Of a stretch of DNA of 44,760 nt, positions 4,862-44,713 are shown piece after piece. The stretch lies in the NCBI GenBank assembly GCA_023257855.1, contig JALRBG010000321.1:1-44760 (forward strand). The letters are read 5' to 3'. The notes under the pieces were generated by a model. That model saw only the letters and a program-made list of their open reading frames with translations, had not been told where the DNA came from and searched no databases. The translations under genes and the position numbers were made by a program. This DNA is from Pseudomonadales bacterium. GTDB lineage: Bacteria > Pseudomonadota > Gammaproteobacteria > Pseudomonadales > Pseudohongiellaceae. Position 1 is the stretch's first letter. Each line of letters begins with the position of its first letter.

Positions 4862-5052
4862 GCGTGAACTCCCCTTGTGCGTGCATAAGCATATGACAGC
4901 GCACAATGTTACCCGCTAGCGCGGTTAGCGCAAAGGATTGAAAAATCCCGCTTCAGTAAAGCAGGCGTCGTGATCCGGCCGGGCATTGCTGGACGCCACC
5001 GGATCAGGCGATTATTCTCGCCTGATGCACTGGAAGCAGTAAAAAGCGAGTC

Positions 5053-9275: not shown

Positions 9276-9286
9276 GATAAGGAACA

Positions 9287-9310
9287 GCCGCCGGCATCAG
9301 TGCCGGCGGC
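9287..9310 (-). other. intercistronic GC-rich hairpin between the dioxygenase and dehydrogenase genes
   Basis: Perfect 10-bp stem GCCGCCGGCA / TGCCGGCGGC with a 4-nt loop. No clear U-tract follows, so it could be an attenuator or mRNA-stabilising structure rather than a full terminator. Confidence 0.5.
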
Positions 9311-9327
9311 CGGTTAGCAGGTGGGTA

Positions 9328-10188
9328 TTAAGGCAGGACGAAGGTGTAATCCAGGGTGAAGAAGGGTTTCTTTAGCCCCCTCGCCTTGATCTCGGCCTTG
9401 TCGGTGTGCTCGGTCACATCAACGCGGAAATCCTTCACCGAGAAGATGGTGTCGGAATCCACGTACGGCGAGCGGTTGAAATACATCATGGTGGTGAACT
9501 CGTCGTGGCCCTTGGCGTGGATCTTGTAGTGGATGTGGGCGGCGCGGTAACCGTGGCGGCCAAGCTGGTGCAGCATCGAGCCGGTGGGGCCAGCCAGAGG
9601 CACCGGGTAGTCGCCCGGGATAACGGTAGCCACATCGAATTCGCCGGTCTTGCTGGTGGTGAAGCGGCCGTAGAAATTCCACTCGGGCAGATGTTCGCGC
9701 TGGACGAAGTAGTAGCCCTCGCCGTTGGGCTGCCAGATGTCCACCTTGGCGCCGACTACCGGCTTGCCATTCTTGTCCACGACCTTGTGGTGGATGAACA
9801 GCGGATTGTCCTTTTTACCGATTTCGCCGATCAGTTCACCGGACTTGCGCTTGGGGAGGCCGGGTATATACAGCGGGCCCTCCACGTTCATCTCGGTGGT
9901 CTTCTTGTTGGCAGCGTCTTCCAGCAGCACGGCGATCTCGGAGATGCCCAGGCAGTCGCTCATCAGGTGGATTTCCCCCATCGGGAAGTCCTGGTTGGGC
10001 TGCGCCAGCTTGAACAGGAACTGGCGGCCGATCTCCAGTTCCTCGGTGGTCAGGTTCACCTCTTTCTGGAAGGCGTGCAGATGCTTGATCAGGCTGGAAT
10101 AGATTTCATGCAGGCGAGGATTTCGCTTGCCCCCGTCACCATGGTTGATAACGGCCTTGGTGATGTTTTTCAGGGTGATGGCTGTCAT
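9328..10188 (-). CDS. intradiol ring-cleavage dioxygenase (catechol / hydroxyquinol 1,2-dioxygenase family)
   Basis: 286 aa with EGPLYIPG, DIWQPNGEGYY, GRFTTSKTGEF and YRAAHIHYKI (Tyr/His iron-ligand regions of intradiol dioxygenases). Confidence 0.88.
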   Translation of the reverse strand: MTAITLKNITKAVINHGDGGKRNPRLHEIYSSLIKHLHAFQKEVNLTTEELEIGRQFLFKLAQPNQDFPMGEIHLMSDCLGISEIAVLLEDAANKKTTEMNVEGPLYIPGLPKRKSGELIGEIGKKDNPLFIHHKVVDKNGKPVVGAKVDIWQPNGEGYYFVQREHLPEWNFYGRFTTSKTGEFDVATVIPGDYPVPLAGPTGSMLHQLGRHGYRAAHIHYKIHAKGHDEFTTMMYFNRSPYVDSDTIFSVKDFRVDVTEHTDKAEIKARGLKKPFFTLDYTFVLP

Positions 10189-23021: not shown

Positions 23022-23099
23022 GGTAATTTTCACCTGGTTTCTACCTATCGGAAATTAGACCACAACCCAGGAAGCGTGACGAGCGCAGGTGTTATCCTG

Positions 23100-23778: not shown

Positions 23779-24654
23779 ATGTGTGACGAAAGAACCTGGA
23801 AAGAAGACAAGGCTTACCTGGGCAAGAAAAAACTGAGCCGCCGCCAGTTCAACCGCCTGACCGCCGGGGCGTCAGTGGCCATGATGCTGCCGCCGGTAGC
23901 CAACGCCCAGCAGGTGACCTCCAGTCACGTCGAGATCACCACGCCTGACGGCGTCGCCGACTGCTTCTATGTGCATCCCGCGTCAGGCAAGCATCCGGCC
24001 GTGCTGGTATGGCCCGACATCTTCGGCCTGCGCGATGCCTTCGAAACCATGGGCACACGCCTGGCGCAGTCTGGCTATTCCGTGCTGGTGGTGAATCCTT
24101 TCTACCGCATCCAGCCCGCGCCGACGTCCGAGCCCGGCGCCGACTTCAACGATCCCGACACCCGCAACAGCCTGTTCTCCATGATGGGTTCACTGAATGC
24201 CCAGACGCACTTCACGGATGCGCAAGCCTTCCTCGGCTGGCTGGACCAGCAGGATGAAGTCGACACCAGCCGCGGTGCCGGCACCACCGGTTACTGCATG
24301 GGCGGTCCGATGGTCATGCGCACCGTGGCGGCCGTACCGGATCGCTTTAAGGCCGGTGCCACCTTCCACGGCGGCGGCCTCGCCACCGATGCCGCAGACA
24401 GCCCGCACCTGCTGATTCCGCAGACCCAGGCGAGCATGCTGCATGCCATCGCCGCCAACGACGACGAAGCCAGCCCGACAGTGAAGGACACCCTGCGCGA
24501 TGCCTATGCTGCGGCCGGTATCGCTGCCGAGATCGAGGTTTACACCGGCACGCTGCACGGCTGGTGCGCCATCGACTCGCAGGTGTACAACATGGCGCAG
24601 GCCGAACGGGCCTGGAATCGCCTGCTGGCCCTGTTTGAAACGGCACTCGCCTGA
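23779..24654 (+). CDS. Tat-exported dienelactone hydrolase family protein
   Basis: 291 aa with twin-arginine motif SRRQFNRLTAGASVAMMLPPVANA. The DLH-like body contains the GYCMGG nucleophile elbow. RBS GGGGGA. Confidence 0.8.
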   Translation: MCDERTWKEDKAYLGKKKLSRRQFNRLTAGASVAMMLPPVANAQQVTSSHVEITTPDGVADCFYVHPASGKHPAVLVWPDIFGLRDAFETMGTRLAQSGYSVLVVNPFYRIQPAPTSEPGADFNDPDTRNSLFSMMGSLNAQTHFTDAQAFLGWLDQQDEVDTSRGAGTTGYCMGGPMVMRTVAAVPDRFKAGATFHGGGLATDAADSPHLLIPQTQASMLHAIAANDDEASPTVKDTLRDAYAAAGIAAEIEVYTGTLHGWCAIDSQVYNMAQAERAWNRLLALFETALA

Positions 24655-24670
24655 CACTGACCAATCGGAC

Positions 24671-25468
24671 ATGCCCATGAAACTGATGAAACCTCGACTG
24701 GCGATAGTGGTGGCTGCCATGCTGCCCTGTCTCGCCGCCGCGCAAACCGGCTTTGAAGGCGTCTGGAGCGGTGCCATGACCACCCCCAATGACGAGCACT
24801 GGAAGGTCGAGGACATCACCCATTGCTGGGCAGGATGTCCCCTTGTGCCCTACCAGCAACTGGGTGCGATGCTGGATGATCCCGCCAACGATGAACTGAC
24901 CTGGGAAGAACTCGAAGGCCGCTATTATGGCAGCATGGCCCAGCACCTGCGCAGTATTTCCACAGAAGCGGGGCTTGAAATACTCAACGGCAGCACCGAT
25001 GCCAACAACCCGTCCATCCATTGTCATGATTACGGCTACATGCGCCAGTCGCTCAACCCGCTGCCGATGGCCATCATCAACAATGGTGACCACCTGACGT
25101 TCAAGTACGAGGAATGGAACCAGGAGCGCACCGTGTATATTGATGGCCGTGATTTCCCGGCCAACATGCAGCCCTCCCAGTTCGGCTATTCCATCGGCCA
25201 CATGGACAACGGCGACCTCGTCATCGAAACGCGCGGTATCGCTGCCGACATCTACAACCCCTTCTCGGGCGGCGGCGGTTACAGCGACCAGGTGGTCGGC
25301 ATGGAGCATTATTCGCTTTCAGGCAACCCGCCCGTGCTGAGCGTGGTGATGACGCTGACCGATCCCGTGACACTCAAGGAGCCCTACCGTTTTCACAAGG
25401 AGTGGTTATCCACACCCGACCTGGTATTGCTTGAAGACAGCTGTGTCGACGTCCCCGGAGAATTCTGA
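24671..25468 (+). CDS. L-family secreted protein, copy L1 (uncharacterised)
   Basis: Signal peptide MKPRLAIVVAAMLPCLAAAQ. Shares the Cys / DGRDFP / GYSIGH...LVIE / DP..L..P / C-terminal Cys architecture with L2-L4. Start could be 24671, 24677 or 24686. Confidence 0.7.
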   Translation: MPMKLMKPRLAIVVAAMLPCLAAAQTGFEGVWSGAMTTPNDEHWKVEDITHCWAGCPLVPYQQLGAMLDDPANDELTWEELEGRYYGSMAQHLRSISTEAGLEILNGSTDANNPSIHCHDYGYMRQSLNPLPMAIINNGDHLTFKYEEWNQERTVYIDGRDFPANMQPSQFGYSIGHMDNGDLVIETRGIAADIYNPFSGGGGYSDQVVGMEHYSLSGNPPVLSVVMTLTDPVTLKEPYRFHKEWLSTPDLVLLEDSCVDVPGEF

Positions 25469-25469
25469 G

Positions 25470-25892
25470 ATGAAAAAAACAATCACGATGCTGCTTGCCG
25501 CGGCCGTCAGTTCGGTTGCCAGCGCACATCACTCGGCAGCGGTATTCTACAAGATGGATGAGGAAATCACACTCACGGGCAAGGTCACCGAATTCCGCAT
25601 GGGCAACCCGCACCTGCGCATCTATTTCGATCGGGTCAACGAGGATGGTGAAACAGAAAAGTGGATGGCTGAAGGCGGTTCGCGCACCGTGCTGCTGAGG
25701 CACAACTGGACCGGCAATGAAATCAAGGAAGGCGACGTCATCACCATGACCGGCAACCCGTCACGCGACGAAGATTCGAACATCGTCCACGTCAAGGACA
25801 TCATCCTGGCAGATGGCAGGGAAATGTTTGCCGAGGATCTCAATCCCGACAACGCCGCCCGCCTGCTGGAAGAGCGCCGGCGAAGGGATTAA
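25470..25892 (+). CDS. S-family small secreted protein, copy S1 (uncharacterised; predicted mature N-terminus HHS)
   Basis: 140 aa, MKKTITMLLAAAVSSVASA|HHSAAVFY..., with the GNPHLRIYF motif. The ATG lies 1 nt after the L1 stop, with GGAG 9 nt upstream. Confidence 0.75.
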   Translation: MKKTITMLLAAAVSSVASAHHSAAVFYKMDEEITLTGKVTEFRMGNPHLRIYFDRVNEDGETEKWMAEGGSRTVLLRHNWTGNEIKEGDVITMTGNPSRDEDSNIVHVKDIILADGREMFAEDLNPDNAARLLEERRRRD

Positions 25893-26426: not shown

Positions 26427-27683
26427 CTACCTTGCTACCTCGTCTCCGCGATAAACCACAGTACGAATTTGCCGGGTGTTGGTGATGTCATCCAGCGGGT
26501 TGCCATTGAGCACGATGAAATCCGCACTCATGCCCGGGGCCAGCGTACCCGCGTCCCCGATACCCAGGAATTCCGCCGCGCTGGATGTCGCCGCCACGAT
26601 GGCCTGCATCGGCGTCATGCCGGCGACCACCATATCCTCGATCTCGACGTGCGCCGCGTAGGGCACGTTGCCGTCAGTACCGAGGGCAACTTTCATGCCG
26701 GCACGGGTCAACACGTACAGGTTGCGCGCCTGGATGGCCCAGGATTCCGCCGCTGCCTCGTTTGCTTCCTGCGCCTGCAGCCGCTCCAACTCATCCGTCG
26801 GCACCAGGCCGGTCAGCCAGTCGTAGTTCGTGGGCACACCCCGGTACGGCATGTTCGGCACCAGCACGACATCGGGCCGCGCCTGCACCATGTCGACGAA
26901 TTCCGCGTCCACATCCATATCCCGCACCCCATGCGCAAACGCATCGAGTCCTGCCTCGAGGAGGCCCTTGGCATCCGACAGGTTGTAGATGTGTGCAGTC
27001 ACGCGCACGCCGTTGGCATGGGCTTCATCGATTACGGCACTGTACAGCTCGGGCGTAATCTTTTCGTACTGGCCGTTGCGGTCGTCGACCCATATCTTGA
27101 TGATATCCACACCGCGGGCAGCTTCCTCAGCGGCGGCGGCCCGCGCCTCTTCAGGCGTATTCACCCAGTGCGGCACTTCCGTGCGTCCCGGCTCGGGTCG
27201 TGTAATGCCGCGGCCGGCGGCAAAATAGCGGGCGGCGCCGGTGATGGTCTCATCCCGTATCGCCAGTATCTCGTCATCGGCATCCATGCCCAGGCTCATG
27301 GCGGCGCCGACACCGAACACGACGCGATTGCGCAGGTCCTGGATGAGGGCTTCACGGGTGGTGCTCAGGTGGACGTGGGTATCCAGCATCATCGGCATCA
27401 CGGTAGCGCCGGCCAGGTCCACTCGGCGGGCACCGGCAGGCAGTGACATCGCTGCAGTCTGACCCACCATGGTGATCTGGCCGCCGTCGACCACGATGGT
27501 GCCGTTTTCGATCGGTGCGCTGCCGTCGCCGGTGATGATACGCCCGCCCTCATAGATCACGGCGGAGGATGTCGGCACTTCGGCATCCTGCTCGTCGGAG
27601 GAACAGCTGGCTATGAATGCCGCTACAGACAACAGTGCCAGCAGTTTTAGTTTACGAAAATTGATAGTGTTCAAGTCCAACAT
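26427..27683 (-). CDS. amidohydrolase family metallo-hydrolase, predicted lipoprotein
   Basis: Contains the HxH motif (LDTHVHL), VTAHIYN, AFAHGVRD and ALGTDGN. The lipobox is FIASC. Start set at 27683 (MLDLN..., GGGGGA 4-5 nt upstream). Confidence 0.8.
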   Translation of the reverse strand: MLDLNTINFRKLKLLALLSVAAFIASCSSDEQDAEVPTSSAVIYEGGRIITGDGSAPIENGTIVVDGGQITMVGQTAAMSLPAGARRVDLAGATVMPMMLDTHVHLSTTREALIQDLRNRVVFGVGAAMSLGMDADDEILAIRDETITGAARYFAAGRGITRPEPGRTEVPHWVNTPEEARAAAAEEAARGVDIIKIWVDDRNGQYEKITPELYSAVIDEAHANGVRVTAHIYNLSDAKGLLEAGLDAFAHGVRDMDVDAEFVDMVQARPDVVLVPNMPYRGVPTNYDWLTGLVPTDELERLQAQEANEAAAESWAIQARNLYVLTRAGMKVALGTDGNVPYAAHVEIEDMVVAGMTPMQAIVAATSSAAEFLGIGDAGTLAPGMSADFIVLNGNPLDDITNTRQIRTVVYRGDEVAR

Positions 27684-27730
27684 GATTTCCCCCGTTGTCA
27701 TTCTTCAGAATAATTTTTCAGTAATGTTGC

Positions 27731-27753
27731 TTTACCTGCACTTTACCCTGCAC
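27731..27753. repeat. tandem 11/12-mer TTTACC(C)TGCAC x2
   Basis: The repeat lies immediately downstream of the L4 stop, in the spacer before the amidohydrolase gene. Confidence 0.4.
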
Positions 27754-28814
27754 TAAGGCAAACGCGAGTAGGTGTAATCTCCCGATACATGGGAAAGAAT
27801 AAACGACTCTACCTCGCCGTCATCGTTGACGACAAAACGGTACGACAGTCCCAGGCCGTCGAACAGGGTCTCTGACAGCGGCACCAGCGTACGCGGTACA
27901 CCCTGCTCCAGCCCCGCCGCCCCGAGCCCGAGTGCGCTGTAGTTACCGACGATCTTCGCGATCAGTTCGTTGCCCTCCAGGGTGACTTCGTAGGTGCGCG
28001 GGCCGTCAGTATAGATCCCGCGATACGAGCCCACATATTTTGCCAAGATATCCGGCGACACCGAGACACCCTTGTCGGCCGCATCGGTGAGCCTGCCTTC
28101 CCAGGTTTCACTGCCGCGCTCACAGACCGACTCCAGCATGCCGGTATCAGCCTGCAGGCGCATGGCCGAGGTGTAGCCCCACGGTGCCGTGAAGGCATCG
28201 GGATCACTGAAGGTCGCCTCGATCTGCAGATGGCCAAAATCCGTGCGCGTGATGCGCTCGGTGACGCGCAGTGCCTCCGTATGCGAGACACCGTATCGGC
28301 TCACCCAGGTCTGGTCGTTGAAACCGTTTGATTCCACCACGAGGGTGTCGCCTTCCCAGTGCCCGGCGGAGTGACCCGTAAAACTCGGAAAGGGATTGGT
28401 TTCGAGTTCGCGCCCGTCGAGGTGTATCACCCGCCAGGTCAGGTCTTCATTCAGGATGACCAGCATGTCCGGTGTTTGCACATAACGTTTCCAGCCGCCG
28501 GCACTTTCCGTTTCGGGGCCGTTCGGCAGGCAGGTGAACAGTGGGCGTGCCTTGTAATACTCAACCTGGCGGTCCCGGGCCAGGTCGGCGACCCATGGCT
28601 GCAGGATAGCGGGATCCAGATCCGCGACGGGCGGCGGACCGTTCCACAGGCCGGTGAGATCCGGCTTGCCATCCGGCGTGCGAGGTGCTGGCGCGCTCAG
28701 ATCCGGGCTGCCATCCGGGGAGCGCGGAATACCCGGCCACGGCCGGTCCAGCCACTGGGCGGCTGCAGGCAGCGATAGTGCGATCAGTACAGTAAATGCG
28801 AAGACATGTTTCAT
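27753..28814 (-). CDS. L-family secreted protein, copy L4 (orphan, with extra C-terminal domain)
   Basis: Start moved to 28814 (MKHVFAFTVLIALSLPAAAQ, RBS GGAGAGGG). Contains DLTGLW, LFTCLPNG, IHLDGRELE, GHSAGHWEGDTLVVE, DPDAFTAPW and SVCERG. An additional ~100-aa C-terminal beta-rich domain follows (YVGSYRG...TYEVTLEGNELIAK...). Confidence 0.75.
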   Translation of the reverse strand: MKHVFAFTVLIALSLPAAAQWLDRPWPGIPRSPDGSPDLSAPAPRTPDGKPDLTGLWNGPPPVADLDPAILQPWVADLARDRQVEYYKARPLFTCLPNGPETESAGGWKRYVQTPDMLVILNEDLTWRVIHLDGRELETNPFPSFTGHSAGHWEGDTLVVESNGFNDQTWVSRYGVSHTEALRVTERITRTDFGHLQIEATFSDPDAFTAPWGYTSAMRLQADTGMLESVCERGSETWEGRLTDAADKGVSVSPDILAKYVGSYRGIYTDGPRTYEVTLEGNELIAKIVGNYSALGLGAAGLEQGVPRTLVPLSETLFDGLGLSYRFVVNDDGEVESFILSHVSGDYTYSRLP

Positions 28815-28884: not shown

Positions 28885-29790
28885 TCATGCGCCCTTCCCT
28901 TCAATCACCCAGGCGGCGCATTCGGTACCCAGCTCTTTAACCGCCAGGTCGACATATTCCTGGTAGTCAGCCTCGGTCAGCACATCCTTCCAGCGGTTGT
29001 TGGTACCCTTGTTAATGAATGCCTTCGCCCCGCCGGCAAACACCTGCCCGCCCATGGGGGTGACCTGTTCGGCATGCGCCTTCATCCAGTCGAAGATGCA
29101 GTATTCGACGATTTTCGGCCAACGGCTTTCCTCGACGTCGATTTCCAGGAAATCGGCGATATCGCGCATCTCTCCCTCGAGGTCGTGCTTGAGGTCGTTG
29201 TAATGGAAAAGTTTGATATTGGGCAGGTCGCGGTACTGCCACCAGGTGCGGATGTTTTCCCAGAATGACCACATGGGATAACCATCCTCGCGCAGCATGC
29301 GGTACCAGAACGTTTTCACGTCCGCAGGGGGCGGCTCAAGCGGCGGCCCCACCAGTCCCGGCGTGTCGTTGAACATGTGATAGGCCTCCTCGGTGAAATT
29401 GAGCAGGTGGTTGTGCAGGCTCCAGACGATGTCGGGAAAATTACGGGTGACATAGAGGTACTTGCAGGCCGGGTTGAAGACGAGCGCGTCCAGCGGCAGG
29501 TGGGTCTTGATGAAGCGGCGTTTTGTCTGCCCCTCCAGGATATCCATCTTAACTTCATAGGGCATGACGCGGACTTCCAGCCAGGGTGTCAGCTGCTCGG
29601 TGGGCAGGTTCGGATCACCGCCGTAAATCAGCTGGCCGACAATCTGCTGTGTCCAGGTGGTGCCCGCCTTGGCGTAGGTGCCGATGATGATGTCGTCATC
29701 ACGAAACGGAAAATCATTCCAGATGGTGGAATCCATGTGATGGTTATGGAGTTCCCGGGTCTTGCACGGCAGCGGTATGGCGTCGCTCAT
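28885..29790 (-). CDS. PAPS-dependent sulfotransferase (cytosolic SULT-like, Sulfotransfer_1 type)
   Basis: 301 aa. The 5'-phosphosulfate-binding loop is TYAKAGTTW. The catalytic His region is IKTHLP. The 3'-phosphate motif is YVTRNFPDIVWSLHNH. No signal peptide. Confidence 0.8.
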   Translation of the reverse strand: MSDAIPLPCKTRELHNHHMDSTIWNDFPFRDDDIIIGTYAKAGTTWTQQIVGQLIYGGDPNLPTEQLTPWLEVRVMPYEVKMDILEGQTKRRFIKTHLPLDALVFNPACKYLYVTRNFPDIVWSLHNHLLNFTEEAYHMFNDTPGLVGPPLEPPPADVKTFWYRMLREDGYPMWSFWENIRTWWQYRDLPNIKLFHYNDLKHDLEGEMRDIADFLEIDVEESRWPKIVEYCIFDWMKAHAEQVTPMGGQVFAGGAKAFINKGTNNRWKDVLTEADYQEYVDLAVKELGTECAAWVIEGKGA

Positions 29791-30072: not shown

Positions 30073-30474
30073 ATGTTTAGCAAGTTGCTTTCGTGCCTGG
30101 TCCTGATTGGCCTGCTGCACGCATCAGGTGCACAGGCACACCACAGCTTTGCCGCTGAATTCAGTTATGACGAATTCGGGACGATCGAAGGCGAGGTGAT
30201 CGAGGTTCTGTTCGTCAATCCGCACGCCCGGTTCTTCGTCGCCGTCATCAACGAGGCCGGCGAGGAGGAGATCTGGGACACCCAGACATCGAGCAGTGTC
30301 GGCCTTACCCGTTTCGGCTGGGTCAAGGATTCCCTGCAGGTGGGCGACAAGGTAGAAATGGAAGGCAATCTGGGCCGCAACAATACGCGCAAGCTCTGGA
30401 TTCGCAAGGTCACTTTTGAAGATGGCCGCGTGATTACACCGACACCGGGAGGAGCAGCCAGTGAAAAGGATTAA
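30073..30474 (+). CDS. S-family small secreted protein, copy S2 (predicted mature N-terminus HHS)
   Basis: 133 aa, ...LLHASGAQA|HHSFAAEF..., with VNPHARFFV, LTRFGW and GDKVEMEG motifs. RBS GGGGG upstream. Confidence 0.8.
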   Translation: MFSKLLSCLVLIGLLHASGAQAHHSFAAEFSYDEFGTIEGEVIEVLFVNPHARFFVAVINEAGEEEIWDTQTSSSVGLTRFGWVKDSLQVGDKVEMEGNLGRNNTRKLWIRKVTFEDGRVITPTPGGAASEKD

Positions 30475-31480
30475 TCCCCTCCTGCAGTTCACCACCCTCA
30501 TAGCCTTCCTGCTGCTGGCCCCTGTCGCCGGCGCCCAGATCACCGGCCAGTGGTTCCTCACCATCGATCACGGCGGTGAGCGCCTTGGCATACTCACCGT
30601 GGAGGAAAACCAGGGCAGCCTGGAAGGCTTCATTGACGGCGGCCCCATCGACCTCAGCCTGCAGGGCAGTACCATCGAAATGACGGCGGATTACCGTGAT
30701 GGCGGCGGCAGGCTGCTCAGCCGGCATCTCACCGGATCCGTGGCCAACGGCATGATGAGCGGCACCCTGGTAGCCGTCCATGACAATTCAAGCGGTACCT
30801 GGCGTGCAGAACCGTGGCGTGGTCCGTCATCATCCGCGCCCCCAGCCCCGGTCGACCTGACCGGCATCTGGTCACGCATCTCGGCCGGCACGGAAAAGGT
30901 CCACCTGGATTACACGGCTGCCGCAGATGCTCGAATCGCCGACTATCATTACCTGGACGATCCCGCCCTGCGCTGCATATCCCCCGGCCTGGTTCGCGTC
31001 TCCGGCTGGCCCTATCCGGTGGAAATCGTGCAGAACGACACGCAGGTCACCATCCTTTACGAAAGCTTTCACGAAGTCAGGCGCATTTTTACAGACGGCC
31101 GCGATTTTCCCGACGACCTGCCCGCAACGGCGATGGGCTATTCCATCGGCCACTGGGAAGGCAGCACCCTGGTGGTGGAAACGCGCCAGTTGAAACCCGG
31201 CTATGTGGACCTGGCGGGGCAGCCCCTGTCGGAGAATGCCCTGGTCACCGAACATATGTCCCTGGCAGACAACGGCAACATACTGCGCAGCCTGCTGACC
31301 CTGCATGACCCGGAATTCTATGCACGCCCCATCACCCGCTATCGGCAGTGGCGGCGCACCCCGGATACCGCGATCCTGGAATACGACTGCGACCCCTACC
31401 CCTTCTTCCGCGGCCTGGAACTGGAGGGAACGCTGGACGAGTACTGGCAGCGCATGCGCCAGGCCGCGCGCAGGCGCTGA
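30461..31480 (+). CDS. L-family secreted protein, copy L2 (with extra N-terminal beta-rich domain)
   Basis: GTG start 6 nt after GGGAGGAG, overlapping the S2 3' end by 14 nt. Signal peptide LLLAPVAGAQ. Contains DLTGIW, ALRCISPG, RRIFTDGRDFP, GYSIGHWEGSTLVVE, HDPEFYARP and YDCDP. Confidence 0.8.
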   Translation: MKRINPLLQFTTLIAFLLLAPVAGAQITGQWFLTIDHGGERLGILTVEENQGSLEGFIDGGPIDLSLQGSTIEMTADYRDGGGRLLSRHLTGSVANGMMSGTLVAVHDNSSGTWRAEPWRGPSSSAPPAPVDLTGIWSRISAGTEKVHLDYTAAADARIADYHYLDDPALRCISPGLVRVSGWPYPVEIVQNDTQVTILYESFHEVRRIFTDGRDFPDDLPATAMGYSIGHWEGSTLVVETRQLKPGYVDLAGQPLSENALVTEHMSLADNGNILRSLLTLHDPEFYARPITRYRQWRRTPDTAILEYDCDPYPFFRGLELEGTLDEYWQRMRQAARRR

Positions 31481-31498: not shown

Positions 31499-31525
31499 GC
31501 CCGGTGAAATGGACATTCACCGGGC
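31499..31525 (+). other. intercistronic hairpin between L2 and the YVTN propeller gene
   Basis: GCCCGGTGAA / TTCACCGGGC form a 10-bp perfect stem with a 7-nt loop. No U-tract follows. Confidence 0.5.
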
Positions 31526-31569
31526 CAGTTCATATCCTAGTAACTGACGACAACCTACCGGCTACCGTA

Positions 31570-32601
31570 ATGAAAAAGTTATTCCCTTTTCTTTCCATGT
31601 TTCTTTCCATGTTCATTTCCGCGCTTGCCATCGCCCAGGAAGGCAGCGTTATCTATGTCACCAACGAGGATTCCAACACGGTATCCGTGATTTCCGGCGA
31701 CACCCACGAGGTCATCGCCACCATTCCCGTCGGCAAGCGCCCGCGCGGCATCAAGGTGAGCCCGGATGGCAGCGTCTTTTATGTCGCCCTGAGCGGTTCA
31801 CCCAAGTGCCCGCCAACCATGGACGACGAGGAATGTGAAAAGATGGTGGCCGACAAGTCTGCGGACGGCATCGCCGAAGTGAATGCCGTGACACAGGAAG
31901 TGGTCCGTATTCTGCCGAGCGGCTCCGACCCCGAGCAATTCGACGTGAACTGGGAGACCGGCAGACTGTATGTGTCAAACGAGGACACCCACACCTCGAG
32001 CATCCTCGACCTGAACAGCGGCACCCTGCTGATGACCATTCCCACCGGCCTGGAACCCGAGGGTGTGCGCCTGACGCCAGACGGCAGCCGTTTCTACGTG
32101 AGCGGGGAAGTGGCCAGCGACATAACCGTGCTCAATGCCAGTACCGGTGCCGAGATCACCCGTATCGGTGTTGGGCTGCGCCCGCGTGACATCCTGTTTA
32201 CCGCCGACAGCTCGACGGCTTACATCTCCGCCGAATTCGGCGCCCTGATCAACATCATCGATGTGGCCAGCAATACCGTAACCGGTGAAATCGCGCTGCC
32301 CGAAGGCTCTCTGCCCATGGGCCTGGTGCTGTCGCCCGACGAAACCATGCTCTATGTCGCCAACGGCCGCGGCCAGACCGTGACGGCCATCGGCCTGGCC
32401 AGCAGGCAGGTGGTGAATTCCGTGGTGGTTGGTCCGCGTCCCTGGGGACTGGCCATGAGCCCTGATGGCACAACACTGTATTCAGCCAACGGTCCGTCCG
32501 ACGATGTATCCGTCATCGATATCGCCAGTTTCGAGGTGGTGAAGAAGATTCCCGTGGGTGAGACGCCCTGGGGCGTCGTGACGGGTCCCGCTCCCCGCTG
32601 A
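31570..32601 (+). CDS. YVTN-family beta-propeller repeat protein (of the type associated with PQQ-dependent catabolism)
   Basis: Signal peptide MKKLFPFLSMFLSMFISALAIAQ. Repeated units are of the form YVTNEDSNTVSVI...IPVGKRPRGIKVSPDGS. Confidence 0.8.
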   Translation: MKKLFPFLSMFLSMFISALAIAQEGSVIYVTNEDSNTVSVISGDTHEVIATIPVGKRPRGIKVSPDGSVFYVALSGSPKCPPTMDDEECEKMVADKSADGIAEVNAVTQEVVRILPSGSDPEQFDVNWETGRLYVSNEDTHTSSILDLNSGTLLMTIPTGLEPEGVRLTPDGSRFYVSGEVASDITVLNASTGAEITRIGVGLRPRDILFTADSSTAYISAEFGALINIIDVASNTVTGEIALPEGSLPMGLVLSPDETMLYVANGRGQTVTAIGLASRQVVNSVVVGPRPWGLAMSPDGTTLYSANGPSDDVSVIDIASFEVVKKIPVGETPWGVVTGPAPR

Positions 32602-38784: not shown

Positions 38785-40425
38785 TTAATACATTACGAAG
38801 GCGAACAGGGTATCCCGGACTGCCGCCAGCAGGTACTGCCTGCCGTCGATCAGGTAAGTCTGGGGACCGTTGGAAATATTGCCGATGCGGCTGTGCCACA
38901 GCAGGTCGCCATTCTCGCCGTCAAAGGCCACGAGGTTGCCGCTGCCGTCGCCGGTGAAGACGAGACCTGTCGCCGTCGTGAGCACACCGGCGCCGACGGG
39001 GGCGCCGCCCGGCCATTCGTGCCGCCACACGGCTTCACCGGTGCGGTAATCCAGGGCATTGAAGGCATTGCCGTCGGTGCCGACGATGGCGACCCGCTTG
39101 CCACCGAGGCCCATGGAGCCGCGCGGATCCGGGTCCGTGAGATAGACGATATTGAAGCCGTTGTTTTCGTGGGTATAGAACAAGCCGAAATCCGGATTGA
39201 AGGCCGGTGGCTGCCAGTTGGCCACACCGCCTTCTATCGGCGACACCAGAGCGCCGGGAATAATGGCTTCCTTCTGCGGGTTGGGAATCGGCGAGCCATC
39301 CTCGCGAACACCCAAGTCCCAGTTGGATTTGGTGCCGTATTTTTTCGTTGCCACCGATTCGCCAGTGATGCGATCGACGGTAAAGAAATAACCGTTGCGC
39401 GCTGCCGTGGAGACCAGCTTGCGCGGCTGCCCGTCGATCTCGCCATCGATGAGGATCGGCGTCTGGGCAGAATCCCAGTCGTGCGTGTCATGGGGTGAGG
39501 TCTGGTGATACCAGGCCATCTCGCCGGTATCGACGTTCACCGCCATCAGTGTGCAGGTAAACAGGTTGTCACCGGGGCGGGCCACACCGGTATAACCGGG
39601 AGTCGGATTGCCGGTGCCGAAAATGTAGTAGCGGGTTTCCGGATCGAACACGCCGGGCACCCACACCTGGCCGCCGCCGTTGCGGGCCGCATCGAGATTG
39701 GGCCAGGTATCCAGTCCGGGATCGCCGGGATTTTGCGGCACAGTAAAGAATTTCCATTGCAACTCGCCGGTGGCCGGATCGAAGGACTGCAGGAACCCGG
39801 GACTGTCGAGGTCGTTGCCGGTACCCACCAGCAGGTGGTCATCCACCACGATGGGCGCCATGGTGGAGAAGTATTGCTGCTCTAGGGGCGCGATCTGCAC
39901 ATGCCAGTTTTCTTCCCCGGTATGGATGTCCAGGGATACGAGATAGTTGTCCGGCGTCTCGAAAAACAGCGCGTCGTTCCAGATGGCCGGGCCGCGGTTG
40001 CCGATATGGATGCCGCCGCGGGAATGCCAGAAGTAATGCCACAATTCGGTACCGTCGCGGGCGTCCATGGCCCAGACATGGTCAGGGGAAGTGACGTAAA
40101 GAATGCCGTTCACCATCAGGAAGCTGCCTTTCAGGTTGGCGCCGGGCGGCAGGTAGTTGCCATCGCCCTCCCCGCCCTGCACGGTGACGATATTGCCCTG
40201 CGTGCGGACATTGGTGTTCATGCGCACGGTCCAGGCCAGGGTCAGGTGCTGGACATTGTCCTTCGTTACCTGAGTGAGCCGGCTGTAGCGCTGGCCGGTG
40301 TAATCACCGGAATAGGTCGGCCACTCCTCCGCCAGCGGGAAATACAGGTCGGCAGGTTCCACACCCTGTGCCGAACCGATGGCGGGAATGCCCACGAGCA
40401 CTGACAGTAACAACAGATTCTTCAT
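38785..40425 (-). CDS. PQQ-dependent dehydrogenase-like beta-propeller protein (no fused haem domain, no vicinal Cys pair)
   Basis: Start set at 40425 (MKNLLLLSVLVGIPAIGSAQG, AGGAG 7 nt upstream). Contains WPTYSGDYTGQRYSRLTQVTKDNVQHLTLAW and repeated W-motif blades. Confidence 0.78.
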   Translation of the reverse strand: MKNLLLLSVLVGIPAIGSAQGVEPADLYFPLAEEWPTYSGDYTGQRYSRLTQVTKDNVQHLTLAWTVRMNTNVRTQGNIVTVQGGEGDGNYLPPGANLKGSFLMVNGILYVTSPDHVWAMDARDGTELWHYFWHSRGGIHIGNRGPAIWNDALFFETPDNYLVSLDIHTGEENWHVQIAPLEQQYFSTMAPIVVDDHLLVGTGNDLDSPGFLQSFDPATGELQWKFFTVPQNPGDPGLDTWPNLDAARNGGGQVWVPGVFDPETRYYIFGTGNPTPGYTGVARPGDNLFTCTLMAVNVDTGEMAWYHQTSPHDTHDWDSAQTPILIDGEIDGQPRKLVSTAARNGYFFTVDRITGESVATKKYGTKSNWDLGVREDGSPIPNPQKEAIIPGALVSPIEGGVANWQPPAFNPDFGLFYTHENNGFNIVYLTDPDPRGSMGLGGKRVAIVGTDGNAFNALDYRTGEAVWRHEWPGGAPVGAGVLTTATGLVFTGDGSGNLVAFDGENGDLLWHSRIGNISNGPQTYLIDGRQYLLAAVRDTLFAFVMY

Positions 40426-40439
40426 GTGATTGCTCCTGC

Positions 40440-41384
40440 TCATTCCAGTGTCATCAGGTAGGCGGTGACGTCATGCATGATCTCGTTGGTCAGAACCGAC
40501 AGCAGGTCACGATGCGCCTGCAGCGGATCAGCGATGACCACGCCGGTCACCCGTGGATCGGTATTCTCATGTAGGGTGAAGCTGCGATACTGCCCTGCGT
40601 CGGTTGTCAGGCTGACGATGAAGTCGTCGCGCCGGTTCAGGCGGCCGGACACTGACTGGCCATTGCTTAAGGTGACTGTAGCGCGGACTTCGCGGCGGGA
40701 CGTATCGGCATTGGGATCTGGCGCGCCCCAGCGGCGACCTGCCACCCAGGAGTTCTGCAGGTTTTCCGGGTTGCCGATCCTGGCAGCGATGTCAGCAAGG
40801 TCGCCGGCCACCGAGTGGCAACTGGAGCATTGCGCATTGAAAAATATCTCACCGGCGGCGGCATCGCCGACAACGATATTGAGCTCCACTGTCTCGCCCG
40901 GCGGCGGACCACCCTGCCCGGACTGGCGCGCCCACACGCTGTGGATGTATTCCGCCACGGCGACACTGTCCTGCACCGACACCTGCAGCGGTGGCATTTC
41001 CGGCATGCCTGGCGTGCTGCGTCCGTTCTGGATGATCTCGCCGATCAGTTCACCGTGCTGGTCGTTGAGGACGATCTGCGAGCGCAAAAGGTTGGGGCCG
41101 CCCTGATCGCCGCCACGCATGTCGGCACCGTGACAAGCCCTGCACAAGCCTTCATAAATCGTTTCGCCGCGCGCCAGCACTTCCGGCGCTGCCAGTTCAC
41201 GCACCTGGGACGGAAAGATGGCAAAGGGTATGGCCTGGGGCGAAGAACTTTCCGGCGCTGCCGGCGCAGTAATTGCGGCGGGTGATGTGTCCGTGGCGTC
41301 ACTCGCAACCTGTTCCTGCTGGCCACAGGCAGCCAGTCCAAGTGACAGGCACAACACGCAGGAAACTCGTGGAATTAATGGCAT
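40440..41384 (-). CDS. dihaem c-type cytochrome, predicted lipoprotein
   Basis: Start moved to 41384 (MPLIPRVSCVLCLSLGLAAC, lipobox LAAC, RBS GGAG). Two CXXCH motifs (CRACHG, CSSCHS). Confidence 0.8.
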   Translation of the reverse strand: MPLIPRVSCVLCLSLGLAACGQQEQVASDATDTSPAAITAPAAPESSSPQAIPFAIFPSQVRELAAPEVLARGETIYEGLCRACHGADMRGGDQGGPNLLRSQIVLNDQHGELIGEIIQNGRSTPGMPEMPPLQVSVQDSVAVAEYIHSVWARQSGQGGPPPGETVELNIVVGDAAAGEIFFNAQCSSCHSVAGDLADIAARIGNPENLQNSWVAGRRWGAPDPNADTSRREVRATVTLSNGQSVSGRLNRRDDFIVSLTTDAGQYRSFTLHENTDPRVTGVVIADPLQAHRDLLSVLTNEIMHDVTAYLMTLE

Positions 41385-41554
41385 GGATACTCCGGCTTTT
41401 ATTATTTTTGGCCACTGCGGTATCAGAGCAATGAAGGTACAAGCATAGGAAAAACGGCTGGAAATTGACAGCCATATTGCGTGCATTTGCCACGGCGATG
41501 ACAGCGGCATCGTTTTTGGGTAGCCTGTGCCGATCAACCCTGGGGAGTATGACC

Positions 41555-42340
41555 ATGGCCCTCACCCGCCGCACACTGACAAAATCCCTTGCCGCCTCCG
41601 CCATCCTGCCGGCCGGCATCACGCTGGCCCAGGCAAAACCGCGTCTCGGCATGATCTTCCCCGTTATCGACCGCGATGTACCCGAAGAGGCCATCCGCAT
41701 GTATGGCGACCGCATCGAGTACGTGGTAGAAAACCTCGACCTGCAAACCATGACACCCGACGGCTACGACGCCGTCATCGGCGACATACCGGCTCTGGCA
41801 CAGAAACTGGTTGAACAGGATGTAGATGCCATCATGGTCATGGGCACGTCGCTGACCTTCTACCAGGGCCGCGAATTCAATGAACGCCTGACAAGCACCA
41901 TTGCCGATTCCACCGGTCTGCCGACGTCCACCATGAGCAACGGCATCATCAACGGCCTGAACGCCGTCGGCGGCAGGAACATTGCCTGCGCCACCGCCTA
42001 CAATGACGTGGTCAACGACAGGCTGGTGCGCTTCCTGACCCAGCATGGTTTCAACGTCACCAATATCGAAGGCCTGGGTATAGAAGCGGTTGGCGATATT
42101 TTTTCGGTCACCCAGCCGCAGCTGATCGATTTCTGCAGCAGTGTCGGCGGCGCCGCCGCGGAAGCGGATGCGATCCTCATCAGTTGCGGTGGCCTGATTA
42201 CGCTCGACGTGCTGGAGCCGGTGGAAAACCGGACCGGCAGGCCCGCTATTTCCAGTACTCCGCATGCGCTTTATGAAGGCGCCAGGCTATTGGGCATCGA
42301 TGCCCGGGTGCCGGGTTACGGCAGGCTGCTCTCAATCTAG
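41555..42340 (+). CDS. Tat-exported Asp/Glu-racemase-superfamily protein (maleate isomerase / arylmalonate decarboxylase-like)
   Basis: Start at 41555 (MALTRRTLTKSLAASAILPAGITLAQA, GGGGAG 7 nt upstream). The body has LGMIFPV..., DAIMVMGTSLTF, IACATAYND and ILISCGGLITLDV blocks typical of this fold. Confidence 0.6.
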   Translation: MALTRRTLTKSLAASAILPAGITLAQAKPRLGMIFPVIDRDVPEEAIRMYGDRIEYVVENLDLQTMTPDGYDAVIGDIPALAQKLVEQDVDAIMVMGTSLTFYQGREFNERLTSTIADSTGLPTSTMSNGIINGLNAVGGRNIACATAYNDVVNDRLVRFLTQHGFNVTNIEGLGIEAVGDIFSVTQPQLIDFCSSVGGAAAEADAILISCGGLITLDVLEPVENRTGRPAISSTPHALYEGARLLGIDARVPGYGRLLSI

Positions 42341-42359: not shown

Positions 42360-43151
42360 TCAGTCCCCTGGACCGACAATGTGCTCCAGGTCGAGGTTGT
42401 TGTCCTGGCAGAAATATTCCGCCATCGGGAAGGTAGACCAGGGGACGTCCCAGCTGGCCGTCCACGGCCGCGTATAGGCGCCGGGGTCGTCGATGGTCAC
42501 CTCGTAATGCAGGGTATCGTGATCCGGTCGTGAAATTCTTTCCACCAGGTGCAGCTGTTCTGTGTGCGGCATCCCGGTCGGGCGGCGCGCAAACCAGAAA
42601 CGCTCGTTAAAGCCCACACTGTCCACGACCAGCGTATCCCCTTCCCAGTGCCCGACCGAGTGACCGAAGAACGTCGGTGTATAGGTAGCCAGGTCCGGGT
42701 GTTCACGGCCGTCCATCCAGATTTCGCGCCAGCTGCGGTTGGCGCCGCCGGACATCACCAATATCCGGTCCAGACCCTTGTCGTGCACGATCTCCAGACC
42801 CCACGGGGTGTGGAACTGGCGCGGGCCGCCCGGCGGCATGCAGCGCGGGTGCGGGTCGTCCCGTCCCAGCGTGGCAAGGCGCTCCTTGACCAGCTGCAGG
42901 GCCCAGGGCTGGAACGGGGCCACCTTGTCGATCTCCTCCGGGTGCACCAGGAAAGCGCCTTCCATCTCGACAAAGTTTTCCGACAGGTTGCCGACGCCGC
43001 TGTTCCAGTGACCGATCTCCCCACGAGCCGCACCCAGGTTCACGGTGCCGTCGTCAAAGCGTGGTGCCGGCTGCTGTGCCAGCACAGGAAAAGTCGTAAC
43101 TGCCAGCAGGCAAGTGGCCAGGTATTTCTTGGTATATGTAAATTCAGTCAC
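42360..43151 (-). CDS. L-family secreted protein, copy L3
   Basis: There is no in-frame ATG before the signal peptide. GTG at 43151 (VTEFTYTKKYLATCLLAVTTFPVLAQQ) overlaps the S3 3' end by 8 nt, with GAGGAAAG upstream. Contains HPRCMPPG, REIWMDGREHP, GHSVGHWEGDTLVVD, DDPGAYTRPW and YFCQDN. Confidence 0.75.
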   Translation of the reverse strand: MTEFTYTKKYLATCLLAVTTFPVLAQQPAPRFDDGTVNLGAARGEIGHWNSGVGNLSENFVEMEGAFLVHPEEIDKVAPFQPWALQLVKERLATLGRDDPHPRCMPPGGPRQFHTPWGLEIVHDKGLDRILVMSGGANRSWREIWMDGREHPDLATYTPTFFGHSVGHWEGDTLVVDSVGFNERFWFARRPTGMPHTEQLHLVERISRPDHDTLHYEVTIDDPGAYTRPWTASWDVPWSTFPMAEYFCQDNNLDLEHIVGPGD

Positions 43152-43551
43152 TGGCGCTTTCCTCGCGGCTGGAACCGGCAAACAGACGCCTGCCGCTGTC
43201 GGCCAGGGTGACCGTATTGGCGTTGACCAGGTTGCTGCCGTCCCGGGCCAGGCTGCCTTCCACTTCGAGAATATCGCCCACGCTGACCGAGTTGCGCGTC
43301 CAACCGTTGCGTTCCATAGCAATGGGCGAGCCCATTTCGAAAGCCCATTCCACGTAGTCACCATCCTCGGTTTCCACTTCCAGGAAGAAGTACACATGCG
43401 GATTGCGCCAGTCCATCTTGATCAGGTAGCCGGTGAGGGTTACGGGCCTGTCGGCGTCGTACTGGGCTGTAAAGGAATGGTGGCTTGAGGCCACCGGTGT
43501 GATGAAGGCCGCTGATACCAGCAATAACCTTGTAAACAAGCGTAGTGACAT
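43144..43551 (-). CDS. S-family small secreted protein, copy S3 (predicted mature N-terminus HHS)
   Basis: Start moved to 43551 (MSLRLFTRLLLVSAAFITPVASS|HHSFTAQY, RBS GGGGGA). Contains RNPHVYFFL, MERNGW and GDILEVEG. Confidence 0.8.
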   Translation of the reverse strand: MSLRLFTRLLLVSAAFITPVASSHHSFTAQYDADRPVTLTGYLIKMDWRNPHVYFFLEVETEDGDYVEWAFEMGSPIAMERNGWTRNSVSVGDILEVEGSLARDGSNLVNANTVTLADSGRRLFAGSSREESASD

Positions 43552-43633
43552 GGTTTCCCCCTGGGTAACTTCCCCGGAAAGCGTATGCCGGTTATGCAAA
43601 AAAGTCCATTCACCTGGTCAGGCAAACGGGGAT

Positions 43634-44713
43634 TTATGCCACGGGTATATAGTAGGCCGTGCCTGCCATCAGCAGCCGGGCCGTGCGCATGATGGCAACA
43701 CTCTTCGGCGCCGGATCGGCAGGATCGTCACTGAGCTCCACTTCCACGGCCAGCGCGCCGGTGGGATGCTCGACGTGGCAGAGCTTGCGCTCCCCCGCCG
43801 GTATCGTGGCAAGGTCATGGCCTACGGCCCCTGGCGTGGTGGCGGCCACGGCCACACTGGCGGCCGCAAGTACGCCTACCGCATCGTGCACACGGTGGGG
43901 GATGAAACTGCGGGTGTTGATGAGGCCGCCGTTTTGCGCCGGCGACACGATGGTCATTTTCGGAACGGTTTTATCCTTCACATCACCCAGGTTCATCATG
44001 GGACCCACCTTCAGGCGGATGGCTTCGACACGTTCTTTCAACGCCGTATTGCCTTCCAGCGCCTCGATGCTTTCATCGCCTTTCAGACCCAGGTCGGGTG
44101 CAGAGATCATTACCACGGGCATGCCGTTGTCGACCAGCGTGACCGGTATGCCATCGACTTCGTCAACCACATTGCCGGAGGGAAACAGCGCACCGCAACT
44201 GGAGCCGGCCACGCCGACGAATTCGATCATGATGGGCGCATGGGTGCCGGGAACGCCATCGATGGCGGCATCACCGTCATACTGCACTTGCTTGCCCGGC
44301 GTCAGGATGCGCTGGCGGGCGATGCTGTCGGTATTTTCCATGTAGACGGTAACGATGGTTTCACCGTCATTGGCTTCCACCAGCCCGTTCTCGATGGCGA
44401 AGGGACCAACACCAGCAAGGATGTTGCCGCAGTTCTGAGCCGTTGACGTGCGCGCCTCGTCCACGACGACCTGCACGAAGAGATAATCGACGTCTATGCC
44501 TTCGCGCGCCGATTTCTTGATGATGGCGACCTTGCTGGTCAGCGGATGGGCGCCGCCGACACCGTCGATCTGGCGAGAATCGGGCGAGCCCATGACACGC
44601 AGCAGGACTTCCTCACGGGCAGCCGGATCTGCGGGCAGGTCGCTGTCCAGGTAATAGGTGCCCTTGGAGGTGCCGCCGCGCATCAACATGCATGGAATGG
44701 CTTTCTGCATCAT
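43634..44713 (-). CDS. PrpF-family isomerase, 4-oxalomesaconate tautomerase (GalD)-like
   Basis: 359 aa. The N-terminus IPCMLMRGGTSKGTYYLDSDLP and the SKVAII...NCGN block are characteristic of PrpF/GalD proteins. The ORF 43433..44446 (+) is an antisense shadow. Confidence 0.8.
   Translation of the reverse strand: MMQKAIPCMLMRGGTSKGTYYLDSDLPADPAAREEVLLRVMGSPDSRQIDGVGGAHPLTSKVAIIKKSAREGIDVDYLFVQVVVDEARTSTAQNCGNILAGVGPFAIENGLVEANDGETIVTVYMENTDSIARQRILTPGKQVQYDGDAAIDGVPGTHAPIMIEFVGVAGSSCGALFPSGNVVDEVDGIPVTLVDNGMPVVMISAPDLGLKGDESIEALEGNTALKERVEAIRLKVGPMMNLGDVKDKTVPKMTIVSPAQNGGLINTRSFIPHRVHDAVGVLAAASVAVAATTPGAVGHDLATIPAGERKLCHVEHPTGALAVEVELSDDPADPAPKSVAIMRTARLLMAGTAYYIPVA

Follow-up and report, generated by a model that had tools for sequence, protein, structure and literature searches.

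Do two exported proteins take part in the metabolism of aromatic ring-fission products when their genes follow that of a LigU/GalD-type isomerase? The question is raised by one end of the stretch of DNA analysed here (the window), the 44,760 nucleotides of contig JALRBG010000321.1 in assembly GCA_023257855.1 of a Pseudomonadales bacterium (Pseudohongiellaceae), where a gene of the PrpF superfamily is followed on the minus strand by S3 and L3, the third copy in the window of a two-gene module (S-L) in which S is the DUF6152 gene and L its partner. All positions are whole-window coordinates. The initial annotation, made from the sequence, had read the three genes as a unit linking the pair to ring-fission-product metabolism; its observation is confirmed, with all coordinates and distances reproduced from the sequence, and its interpretation is partly supported. 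The explanation we prefer, to which we give about an even chance as a whole, is that ligU lies beside an independent exported S-L module that would serve a periplasmic step for phenolic or aromatic substrates. In estuary metagenomes the sequence of the window occurs intact. The genes in question, with the LigU/GalD-type gene, S3 and L3 following one another on the minus strand and a fourth gene convergent on the plus strand, are these:

43634-44713, minus strand: gene for a LigU/GalD-type 4-oxalomesaconate isomerase/tautomerase of the PrpF superfamily, 359 aa, cytoplasmic (PF04303, NF033377, match to LigU)
43144-43551, minus strand: S3, exported DUF6152 protein of 135 aa, leader residues 1-23 (PF19649, AlphaFold2 model, Foldseek)
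42360-43151, minus strand: L3, exported protein of 263 aa from an unnamed family, leader residues 1-25 (homologues, AlphaFold2 model, substitution rates)
43144-43151, minus strand: 8-nt overlap of S3 and L3, GTGACTGA, with the GTG of L3 inside the S3 stop region (sequence and relatives)
41549-42340, plus strand: arylmalonate-decarboxylase-like gene with a twin-arginine translocation (Tat) leader (PF17645, NF052327, arylmalonate decarboxylase in the PDB)

The S-L pair is, with high confidence, a conserved two-part exported module. In a neighbourhood sample of 79 loci from GTDB species genomes, holding 166 L copies, an S gene lies directly upstream on the same strand in 120 of the 166, and in 37 of those 120 the two are fused in frame; many L homologues are single polypeptides in which DUF6152 is the N-terminal and the L domain the C-terminal part, an arrangement found in many Acidobacteriota. 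Tandem S-L-S-L arrays are common across the sample, with up to six L copies within 20 kb at locus L069. The carriers are almost all uncultured Gammaproteobacteria (among them Pseudohongiellaceae-type bacteria, Pseudomonadales, Nevskiaceae and Steroidobacteraceae) and Acidobacteriota (among them Bryobacterales, Terriglobia and Vicinamibacterales), and the L family is present in multiple copies per genome in estuarine Gammaproteobacteria and in soil or peat Acidobacteriota. The arrangement that defines the module, a DUF6152 gene upstream of, overlapping or fused to an L gene, is seen at S3-L3 in the form of the 8-nt overlap. Because the two genes are coupled and so often fused, we argue for a 1:1 complex of S and L.

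The junction between S3 and L3 bears on whether L3 is expressed at all, given that the initial annotation had placed its start at a GTG within the end of S3, with coupled translation, and had named a start-less pseudogene as the alternative. S3 runs from the ATG at 43551, preceded by GGGGG at 43557-43561, to 43144; the distance of 82 nt between the stop of the PrpF-family gene and this ATG, on the same strand, is borne out by the sequence, as is the 8-nt overlap. The GTG start of L3 lies at 43151, with a Shine-Dalgarno sequence, GAGGA, at 43160-43164, 8 nt upstream. The same junction is found unchanged in two relatives (L005 and L006), while L007 and L009 have an ATGA overlap instead and L008 has a short spacer, so that S/L junctions overlap or nearly abut in six genomes; in other L3 homologues the start codon is ATG and the leader similarly long. 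Given these junctions and those of copies 1 and 2 of the window, tight S-L coupling appears to be a rule of the family, and the GTG start unremarkable. Measured against the two closest relatives, the ratio of nonsynonymous to synonymous substitution rates (dN/dS) is 0.06-0.10 for L3 and 0.15 for S3, values that indicate purifying selection on both genes. The start-less pseudogene is thus ruled out by the GAGGA and GTG, by the junctions of the relatives and by the dN/dS of L3, which on these sequence criteria is a real, functional gene, and translational coupling of S3 with L3 is supported by the same features.

Export of both proteins, as first proposed, agrees with Sec-type leaders in S3 (MSLRLFTRLLLVSAAFITPVASS/HH) and L3 (VTEFTYTKKYLATCLLAVTTFPVLA/QQ), leaders and cleavage sites having been assigned by eye and by homologue alignment. 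A lipoprotein reading of L3 (LATC) was rejected on the Thr at position -1, a hydrophobic stretch that is too short and a Cys that relatives do not keep.

What kind of proteins the two subunits might be was approached through family models, invariant residues and predicted structures. S3 matches PF19649 in Pfam (E = 4e-25, 88.2 bits, gathering score 27), as do S1 (88.3 bits) and S2 (69.4 bits). The mature N-terminus of S3 is His24-His25, encoded at 43477-43482, and across 41 members of the S family H24, H25, N50, P51 and H52 (an NPH motif or turn), W84 and three Gly are invariant. In these 41 sequences, and likewise in the fusions, the His-His directly follows a presumed AxA-type cleavage site (A/HHSF), and the S-then-L order of the fusions leaves it at a free N-terminus, which suggests ligand or metal coordination. 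AlphaFold2 models were made of S3 and L3 as single subunits, each alone. That of S3 (predicted local distance difference test score, pLDDT, 83) is an OB-fold with a five-strand barrel; its Foldseek matches are OB-folds, including the LysRS anticodon-binding N-domain, PriB, SSB and Stn1, with E from 3e-4, and all of its top 50 matches in the PDB are OB-fold proteins. Sequence searches found no solved relatives of S3. As a small exported five-strand OB barrel S3 resembles the copper/silver chaperone CusF and the BOF family (YgiW/YdeI); it differs from them in having no family match to either (a Pfam scan at E <= 0.01 gives DUF6152 only), in top structural matches that are nucleic-acid-binding OB folds, and in that S always comes with a partner subunit. 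With the histidine-brace copper proteins (lytic polysaccharide monooxygenases, CopC, PmoF) the S family shares a strictly conserved His as first mature residue, kept by the order of the fusions, and, as with the electron donors of such proteins, cytochromes c and pyrroloquinoline quinone (PQQ) dehydrogenases are frequent neighbours of S-L. The predicted fold of S3, in contrast, is an OB-fold and not an immunoglobulin-like or cupredoxin-like sandwich. A monooxygenase- or CopC-like sandwich was therefore ruled out for S3, on its AlphaFold2 model and its top 50 PDB matches, and a literature search on a histidine brace in an OB-fold gave nothing relevant.

L3 matched no model in Pfam or NCBIfam, and a profile search of the PDB found no solved chain for it. 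A word-indexed search returned more than 7,600 homologues, all unnamed, a look-up of cluster members yielded no useful protein names, and an exhaustive profile search put the L family at 18,735 representatives of 50%-identity clusters at E <= 1e-3 and 10,767 at E <= 1e-10. The predicted structure (pLDDT 88, predicted template modelling score 0.84) begins with an extended, partly helical region, and eight strands follow over residues 119-239. Its C-terminal half is thus, as predicted, an eight-strand antiparallel barrel like those of the calycin superfamily (lipocalins, FABPs and avidins; also YceI and ZinT), and Foldseek gives weak calycin-type matches (FABP/CRBP, streptavidin, Tp0751; E 0.013-0.1), the best at E = 0.013 with a TM-score of about 0.43 relative to the target. 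Unlike calycins, L3 has an extra N-terminal part of about 90 residues, and the likeness stays at TM-scores of about 0.4 and E of 0.01-0.1, with no sequence similarity to solved structures. Residues C104, C248, R142, D147, R149, E204 and D222 are invariant, the window's distant paralogues included. Domain fusions among distant L-family members, sought as a clue to function, are limited to DUF6152, the OmpA C-terminal domain and DUF3471. The folds predicted for S3 and L3, OB and calycin-like, are both typical ligand-binding scaffolds. To the DUF6152 entry, which gives no function, these data add the OB-fold prediction, the invariant mature N-terminal His-His and the obligate pairing or fusion with an unnamed family; S-L is annotated nowhere beyond "DUF6152" or "hypothetical protein", the L family has no model of its own, and the obligate pairing or fusion, the predicted combination of an OB-fold with a barrel and the invariant His-His at the N-terminus appear to be new to description.

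The gene upstream, by comparison, is known and routine biology. PF04303 covers the full length of its product (E = 1e-96), which passes the NCBIfam equivalog for 4-oxalomesaconate tautomerase (NF033377; 500.2 bits, cut-off 440), the type to which it had first been assigned, and fails that for true PrpF (TIGR02334; 195, cut-off 440). Its best solved relative is LigU (PDB 6P3H/6P3J), matched over the full length with E = 2e-130, and residues K61 (LTSKV) and C95 (QNCGN) align with LigU K66 and C100, which we take to be the catalytic Lys/Cys pair. The alignment with LigU begins at residue 5, in line with a protein that has no leader, and dN/dS against the two closest relatives is 0.04. The gene is likened to those of the (4E)-oxalomesaconate delta-isomerase LigU of Novosphingobium/Sphingobium and the 4-oxalomesaconate tautomerase GalD of Pseudomonas putida by its full-length match, Lys/Cys pair and equivalog score, and by the LigK-type aldolase gene that adjoins it in relatives. 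The equivalog score and the match to LigU support its assignment as a putative LigU/GalD orthologue. The window ends 47 nt upstream of it. Four relatives have, upstream of the isomerase gene and divergent from it, a LigK equivalog (TIGR02798; 366 bits, cut-off 304.5) together with a 315-aa GFO/IDH/MocA gene, and in Ca. Eutrophocola salsuginis the region past the window edge encodes LigK (4-carboxy-4-hydroxy-2-oxoadipate aldolase, above cut-off), the 315-aa GFO/IDH/MocA dehydrogenase, an aldo-keto reductase, an NHL propeller and a tannase. The immediate neighbourhood of the locus holds neither a ring-cleavage dioxygenase nor an oxalomesaconate hydratase adjacent to the isomerase gene, which sets it apart from known lig/gal operons, as does the run of exported genes that follows ligU here; we know of no lig/gal operon with such genes. 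A separate ortho-cleavage-type set, with an intradiol (catechol/hydroxyquinol-type) dioxygenase, a 2-hydroxyacid dehydrogenase and a dienelactone hydrolase, occupies 7558-10188 (minus strand), 33 kb away from the ligU gene and beside a TetR gene at 6689-7318.

Genes around the 79 loci were clustered, and the cluster representatives checked with Pfam and NCBIfam. Genes for LigB-family dioxygenases, Amidohydro_2 proteins and RraA/LigK-like proteins occur at 10 loci each, and PrpF, RraA, Amidohydro_2 or LigB clusters lie within 10 kb at 16 of the 79, in several distinct architectures; one of them reads AH2< S> L> MFS< c2< LigB< AH2< RraA< RraA< PQQ< (AH2, Amidohydro_2; MFS, major facilitator superfamily; arrowheads give gene direction). 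On one gammaproteobacterial and one acidobacterial contig the aromatic set beside S-L was confirmed by independent gene calls and precomputed Pfam assignments, and one locus with the aromatic set (L024) belongs to the same genome as a locus of the window's type (L005). At seven loci an MFS gene is convergent with L, 10-300 nt after it. Assuming a background of a few such genes per genome, LigB-type genes would be about tenfold enriched near S-L.

We therefore propose, tentatively and at somewhat less than even odds, that the function of S-L is linked to aromatic catabolism; a role in the periplasm, ahead of aromatic ring cleavage, is plausible. The isomerase would act in the cytoplasm on oxalomesaconate, in the lower pathway of protocatechuate 4,5-cleavage or gallate degradation, with a divergently encoded LigK as partner in the closest relatives. 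S3 and L3 would be the two coupled halves of one exported, presumably periplasmic, protein of stoichiometric two-subunit make-up, S3 as an OB-fold subunit with an N-terminal His-His and L3 as a subunit with a calycin-like barrel of eight strands and a probable disulfide. This protein would bind ligands, or process phenolic or aromatic substrates in a metal-dependent way, ahead of inner-membrane uptake (MFS) and cytoplasmic meta-cleavage, often beside periplasmic PQQ-dehydrogenase/cytochrome c systems. One S-L paralogue would have come to stand beside ligU/ligK in this lineage, and others beside LigB, Amidohydro_2, RraA and MFS genes, and it is because paralogues are found at both that periplasmic capture or conversion of a phenolic substrate fits. 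In their multiple copies beside varied exported enzymes and transporters, S-L genes resemble those of substrate-specific accessory or binding proteins. A function for S-L, if found, would be a function for a very large block of unannotated exported proteins, and could bring to light a periplasmic step that is missing from the picture of how bacteria turn over aromatics derived from lignin or tannin; the N-terminal His-His, being strictly conserved, is a concrete handle for testing it.

Several points weigh against this proposal. The sample of 79 loci consists of those most similar to L3, which are not independent of one another phylogenetically, and the ring-cleavage count of 16 of 79 is a raw figure, uncorrected for background. 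Contexts are heterogeneous, and in most Acidobacteriota loci nothing is seen beyond tandem S-L arrays, a third small exported protein, TonB receptors and cytochromes. The S3-L3 heterodimer and any composite metal site are inferred. In the literature library searched, no paper mentions DUF6152. Two further points concern the spacer upstream of S3, discussed below: the hexamers of its promoter-like block are weak, with 4/6 and 3/6 consensus matches, and fall below the threshold of a consensus scan, and no metatranscriptome contig from eight public runs, whose contigs are short and of low depth, spans 43552-43633 or 43144-43151.

The main alternative, in our view improbable yet the best of those considered, is that S-L has a general redox or metal role in the periplasm, with a His-ligated centre that serves c-type cytochromes and PQQ dehydrogenases by electron exchange or metal handling, and that its adjacency to ligU is incidental. 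Proteins with a CxxCH motif are encoded by 25 of the 358 genes within two genes of S or L, compared with 9 of the 567 at least five genes away (Fisher p = 4e-5), and at 16 loci PQQ dehydrogenase and cytochrome c genes lie within 6 kb of S-L, a combination also found in the window. A gene for a small cytochrome c directly adjoins or overlaps the start of S, or of an S-L fusion, at eight Bryobacterales loci (0-3 nt), which suggests that in Bryobacterales the cytochrome is translationally coupled with the module. The invariant N-terminal His-His and NPH would suit such a centre, and the propeller encoded after copy 2 resembles a family associated with PQQ-dependent catabolism. Neither S nor L, however, carries a known cofactor motif; S-L also lies beside non-redox exported enzymes (AMDase-like, dienelactone hydrolase, sulfatase and metallo-beta-lactamase fold), and its recurrence beside LigB/Amidohydro_2/RraA/MFS sets would be left without explanation.

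A bolder reading takes S-L as a new class of periplasmic metalloprotein, in which the His-His together with the NPH His, conserved His/Asp/Glu of the barrel, or both, would form a histidine-brace-like copper or iron centre that receives electrons from neighbouring cytochromes c and PQQ dehydrogenases and oxidises or otherwise converts lignin- or tannin-derived phenolics in the periplasm before uptake and ring cleavage. We hold this to be a long shot.

Returning to the independent module beside ligU, the reading with which it has to be compared at this particular locus is that of the initial annotation, in which PrpF, S3 and L3 would be a single operon, with the exported pair working alongside the isomerase directly in the metabolism of ring-fission products. 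The features of the 82-nt spacer between PrpF and S3 are as follows:

43603-43608, minus strand: -35-like hexamer TGGACT (part of a block conserved in five genomes)
43580-43585, minus strand: -10-like hexamer TACGCT, separated by 17 nt from the -35-like hexamer and by some 28 nt from the S3 ATG (same conserved block)
43596-43629, minus strand: terminator-like hairpin (43629-43606) with a T-run, directly after the PrpF stop and overlapping the -35-like element

Same strand, short spacer and want of a convincing terminator all favour one operon, as does the order PrpF-S-L, which is repeated in L005 and L006, the two closest relatives. A close LigU-type gene (81-97% identical) is nevertheless found within 10 kb of S-L at L005-L008 only. 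PrpF and S are separated in L008 by a membrane-protein gene of opposite orientation, and in L007 by that gene and three more; outside these four close relatives the sole PrpF-family gene within 10 kb is that of L016, 37% identical and about 1.6 kb from an L copy, all other loci having none. Most S-L copies, the window's other copies included, have no PrpF neighbour, and the PrpF-S3-L3 order is a lineage-specific arrangement rather than a defining feature of the module; PrpF-S-L is not a conserved unit.

Alignment of the spacers from five genomes revealed a block, TGGAC(T/A)-N17-TA(C/A/G)(G/A/T)CT, about 28-35 nt before the S start codon, with TAATCT or TAGGCT at the -10-like place in relatives. 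It is also kept in L007 and L008, where the upstream gene is not PrpF. Since the block persists in five genomes whatever the gene upstream, S-L probably has its own promoter, which is probably activator-dependent; of the separate promoter that the initial annotation had set against its own reading, the conserved block is found and the hexamers are weak. An intrinsic terminator between PrpF and S3 was not accepted, as terminator-like sites are no more numerous than in shuffled sequences (3 found, 2.2 expected), the fold of the hairpin has a z-score of -0.6 and its T-run is broken in L005 and L006; the hairpin is, judged by these measures, probably not a functional terminator. Contigs from estuary and marine metatranscriptomes cover parts of the isomerase gene, S3, L3 and the AMDase-like gene, and all three genes of the supposed operon are thus transcribed in situ. 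The weak promoter within the spacer would be the most likely source of S-L transcripts, with read-through from ligU as a possible second one, and at least partial co-transcription with ligU is conceivable at a little under even odds. A single ligU-S3-L3 operon, which should keep its adjacency and have no internal promoter, is at odds with the interrupted order in L007 and L008 and with the promoter-like block. As oxalomesaconate and its products are cytoplasmic and S-L carries export leaders, direct action of S3 and L3 on ring-fission products is topologically unlikely, and a direct role for the pair in their metabolism is not supported. Taken as a whole, we consider this operon reading quite unlikely.

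Least probable of all, and very unlikely in our estimate, is a periplasmic metal-trafficking or buffering protein unrelated to carbon catabolism, like the OB-fold CusF or the calycin-fold ZinT, for which the OB-fold and calycin-like barrel predictions, the His-rich invariant positions in both S and L and a ZnuA gene at the edge of one locus speak, and against which stand the lack of any Pfam match to CusF, BOF or ZinT, their absence from the top 50 Foldseek matches, and a setting atypical of metal homeostasis genes, with as many as six copies of L in 20 kb (L069), tandem arrays and neighbours of catabolic type.

The gene convergent with L3 had been described as encoding a Tat-exported, maleate-isomerase-like protein. 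Its orientation, the 19-nt gap between the L3 stop and its end at 42340 (GACTCCAGCCTGAGACTCC) and a twin-arginine motif (TRRTLTK, kept in orthologues) all stand; the enzyme family is closer to arylmalonate decarboxylase (AMDase). The protein matches PF17645 (E = 5e-74) and passes the NCBIfam equivalog for arylmalonate decarboxylase (NF052327; 249.7 bits, cut-off 225), and in the PDB it matches AMDase with E = 2.5e-54 and maleate isomerase with about 1.4e-11. It keeps the Gly-Thr-Ser (MGTS) and single-Cys (SCGG) segments of AMDase and has Gly at the position of the first Cys; two catalytic Cys presumably mark maleate isomerases, and the Gly74/Cys188 segments AMDase. The label of maleate cis-trans isomerase was ruled out on the far closer AMDase match and the Gly in place of the first Cys, and on the strength of NF052327, the PDB matches and the Tat motif we label the product AMDase-like and Tat-exported. 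It resembles the Bordetella bronchiseptica arylmalonate decarboxylase (2VLB) in the PDB match, the conserved segments and the NCBIfam cut-off; that enzyme, however, has no leader, residues 5-7 of the PDB chains aligning onto residue 30 of the convergent protein. A periplasmic location is predicted for it because of the twin-arginine leader. To our knowledge no natural substrate of AMDase has been established, and a literature search on a periplasmic AMDase gave nothing relevant. In each of the four close relatives the AMDase-like gene converges on L at a distance of 7-24 nt, and the more distant L018 also has it next to L copies.

The window's other paralogues are the following:

30073-31480, plus strand: copy 2, with S2 at 30073-30474 and L2 (GTG start) at 30461-31480, overlapping by 14 nt
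24671-25892, plus strand: copy 1, in reversed order, with L1 at 24671-25468 and then S1 at 25470-25892, separated by a 1-nt spacer
27753-28814, minus strand: lone L paralogue with a C-terminal extension and no S partner

L2 has an extra N-terminal domain of about 115 aa, weakly similar (E = 1e-4) to a small exported protein without a Pfam family, "c2". Within about 500 nt of S-L at some 31 of the 79 loci, "c2" is the third small exported protein without a family found there; near copy 3 of the window it is absent as a separate gene, the window having only the weakly similar N-terminal domain of L2, a similarity which, weak as it is, suggests a fusion of "c2" to the N-terminus of L2. The C-terminal extension of the lone paralogue is about 100 aa long, with a weak DUF3471 match, and its gene is flanked, on the same strand, by those of a sulfotransferase (28885-29790) and of an amidohydrolase (26427-27701). 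Directly upstream of L1-S1 is a dienelactone hydrolase gene (23779-24654, plus strand); its product has a Tat-like leader (SRRQFNR), so that copy 1, too, follows another exported hydrolase.

Right after L2, a beta-propeller gene (31504-32601, plus strand) scores 245 bits against TIGR03866 (PQQ-dependent catabolism-associated), short of the cut-off of 287; propellers like it are also present in the L007 and L008 loci. The window further holds three PQQ-dehydrogenase-like genes (2672-4906, 20967-23033 and 38785-40443, minus strand), of which two carry fused cytochrome c domains, while a dihaem cytochrome c has its own gene at 40440-41390 (minus strand). The product of 38785-40443 passes TIGR04528, "acido-empty-quinoprotein group A", a family defined in genomes without PQQ synthesis. 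At 15404-17569 (minus strand) is encoded a 721-aa exported protein of no Pfam or NCBIfam family, with a weak CarboxypepD_reg-like N-terminus and one CxxCH. Beyond the window, the Bryobacterales adjacency of cytochrome and S was noted at L084 (7576-9107) and at L037, L038, L048, L052, L055, L065, L066 and L067.

Two labels in the sample call for comment. L009, a Terriglobia metagenome-assembled genome (OZ253554.1, labelled Acidobacteriota), holds an L copy 77% identical to L3 that has neither PrpF nor AMDase neighbours, which would be either a horizontal transfer of the pair or a problem of binning or labelling. L006 is labelled "Enterobacteriaceae" although it is almost identical to the window, and for that reason we regard labels of metagenome-assembled genomes in this sample as unreliable.

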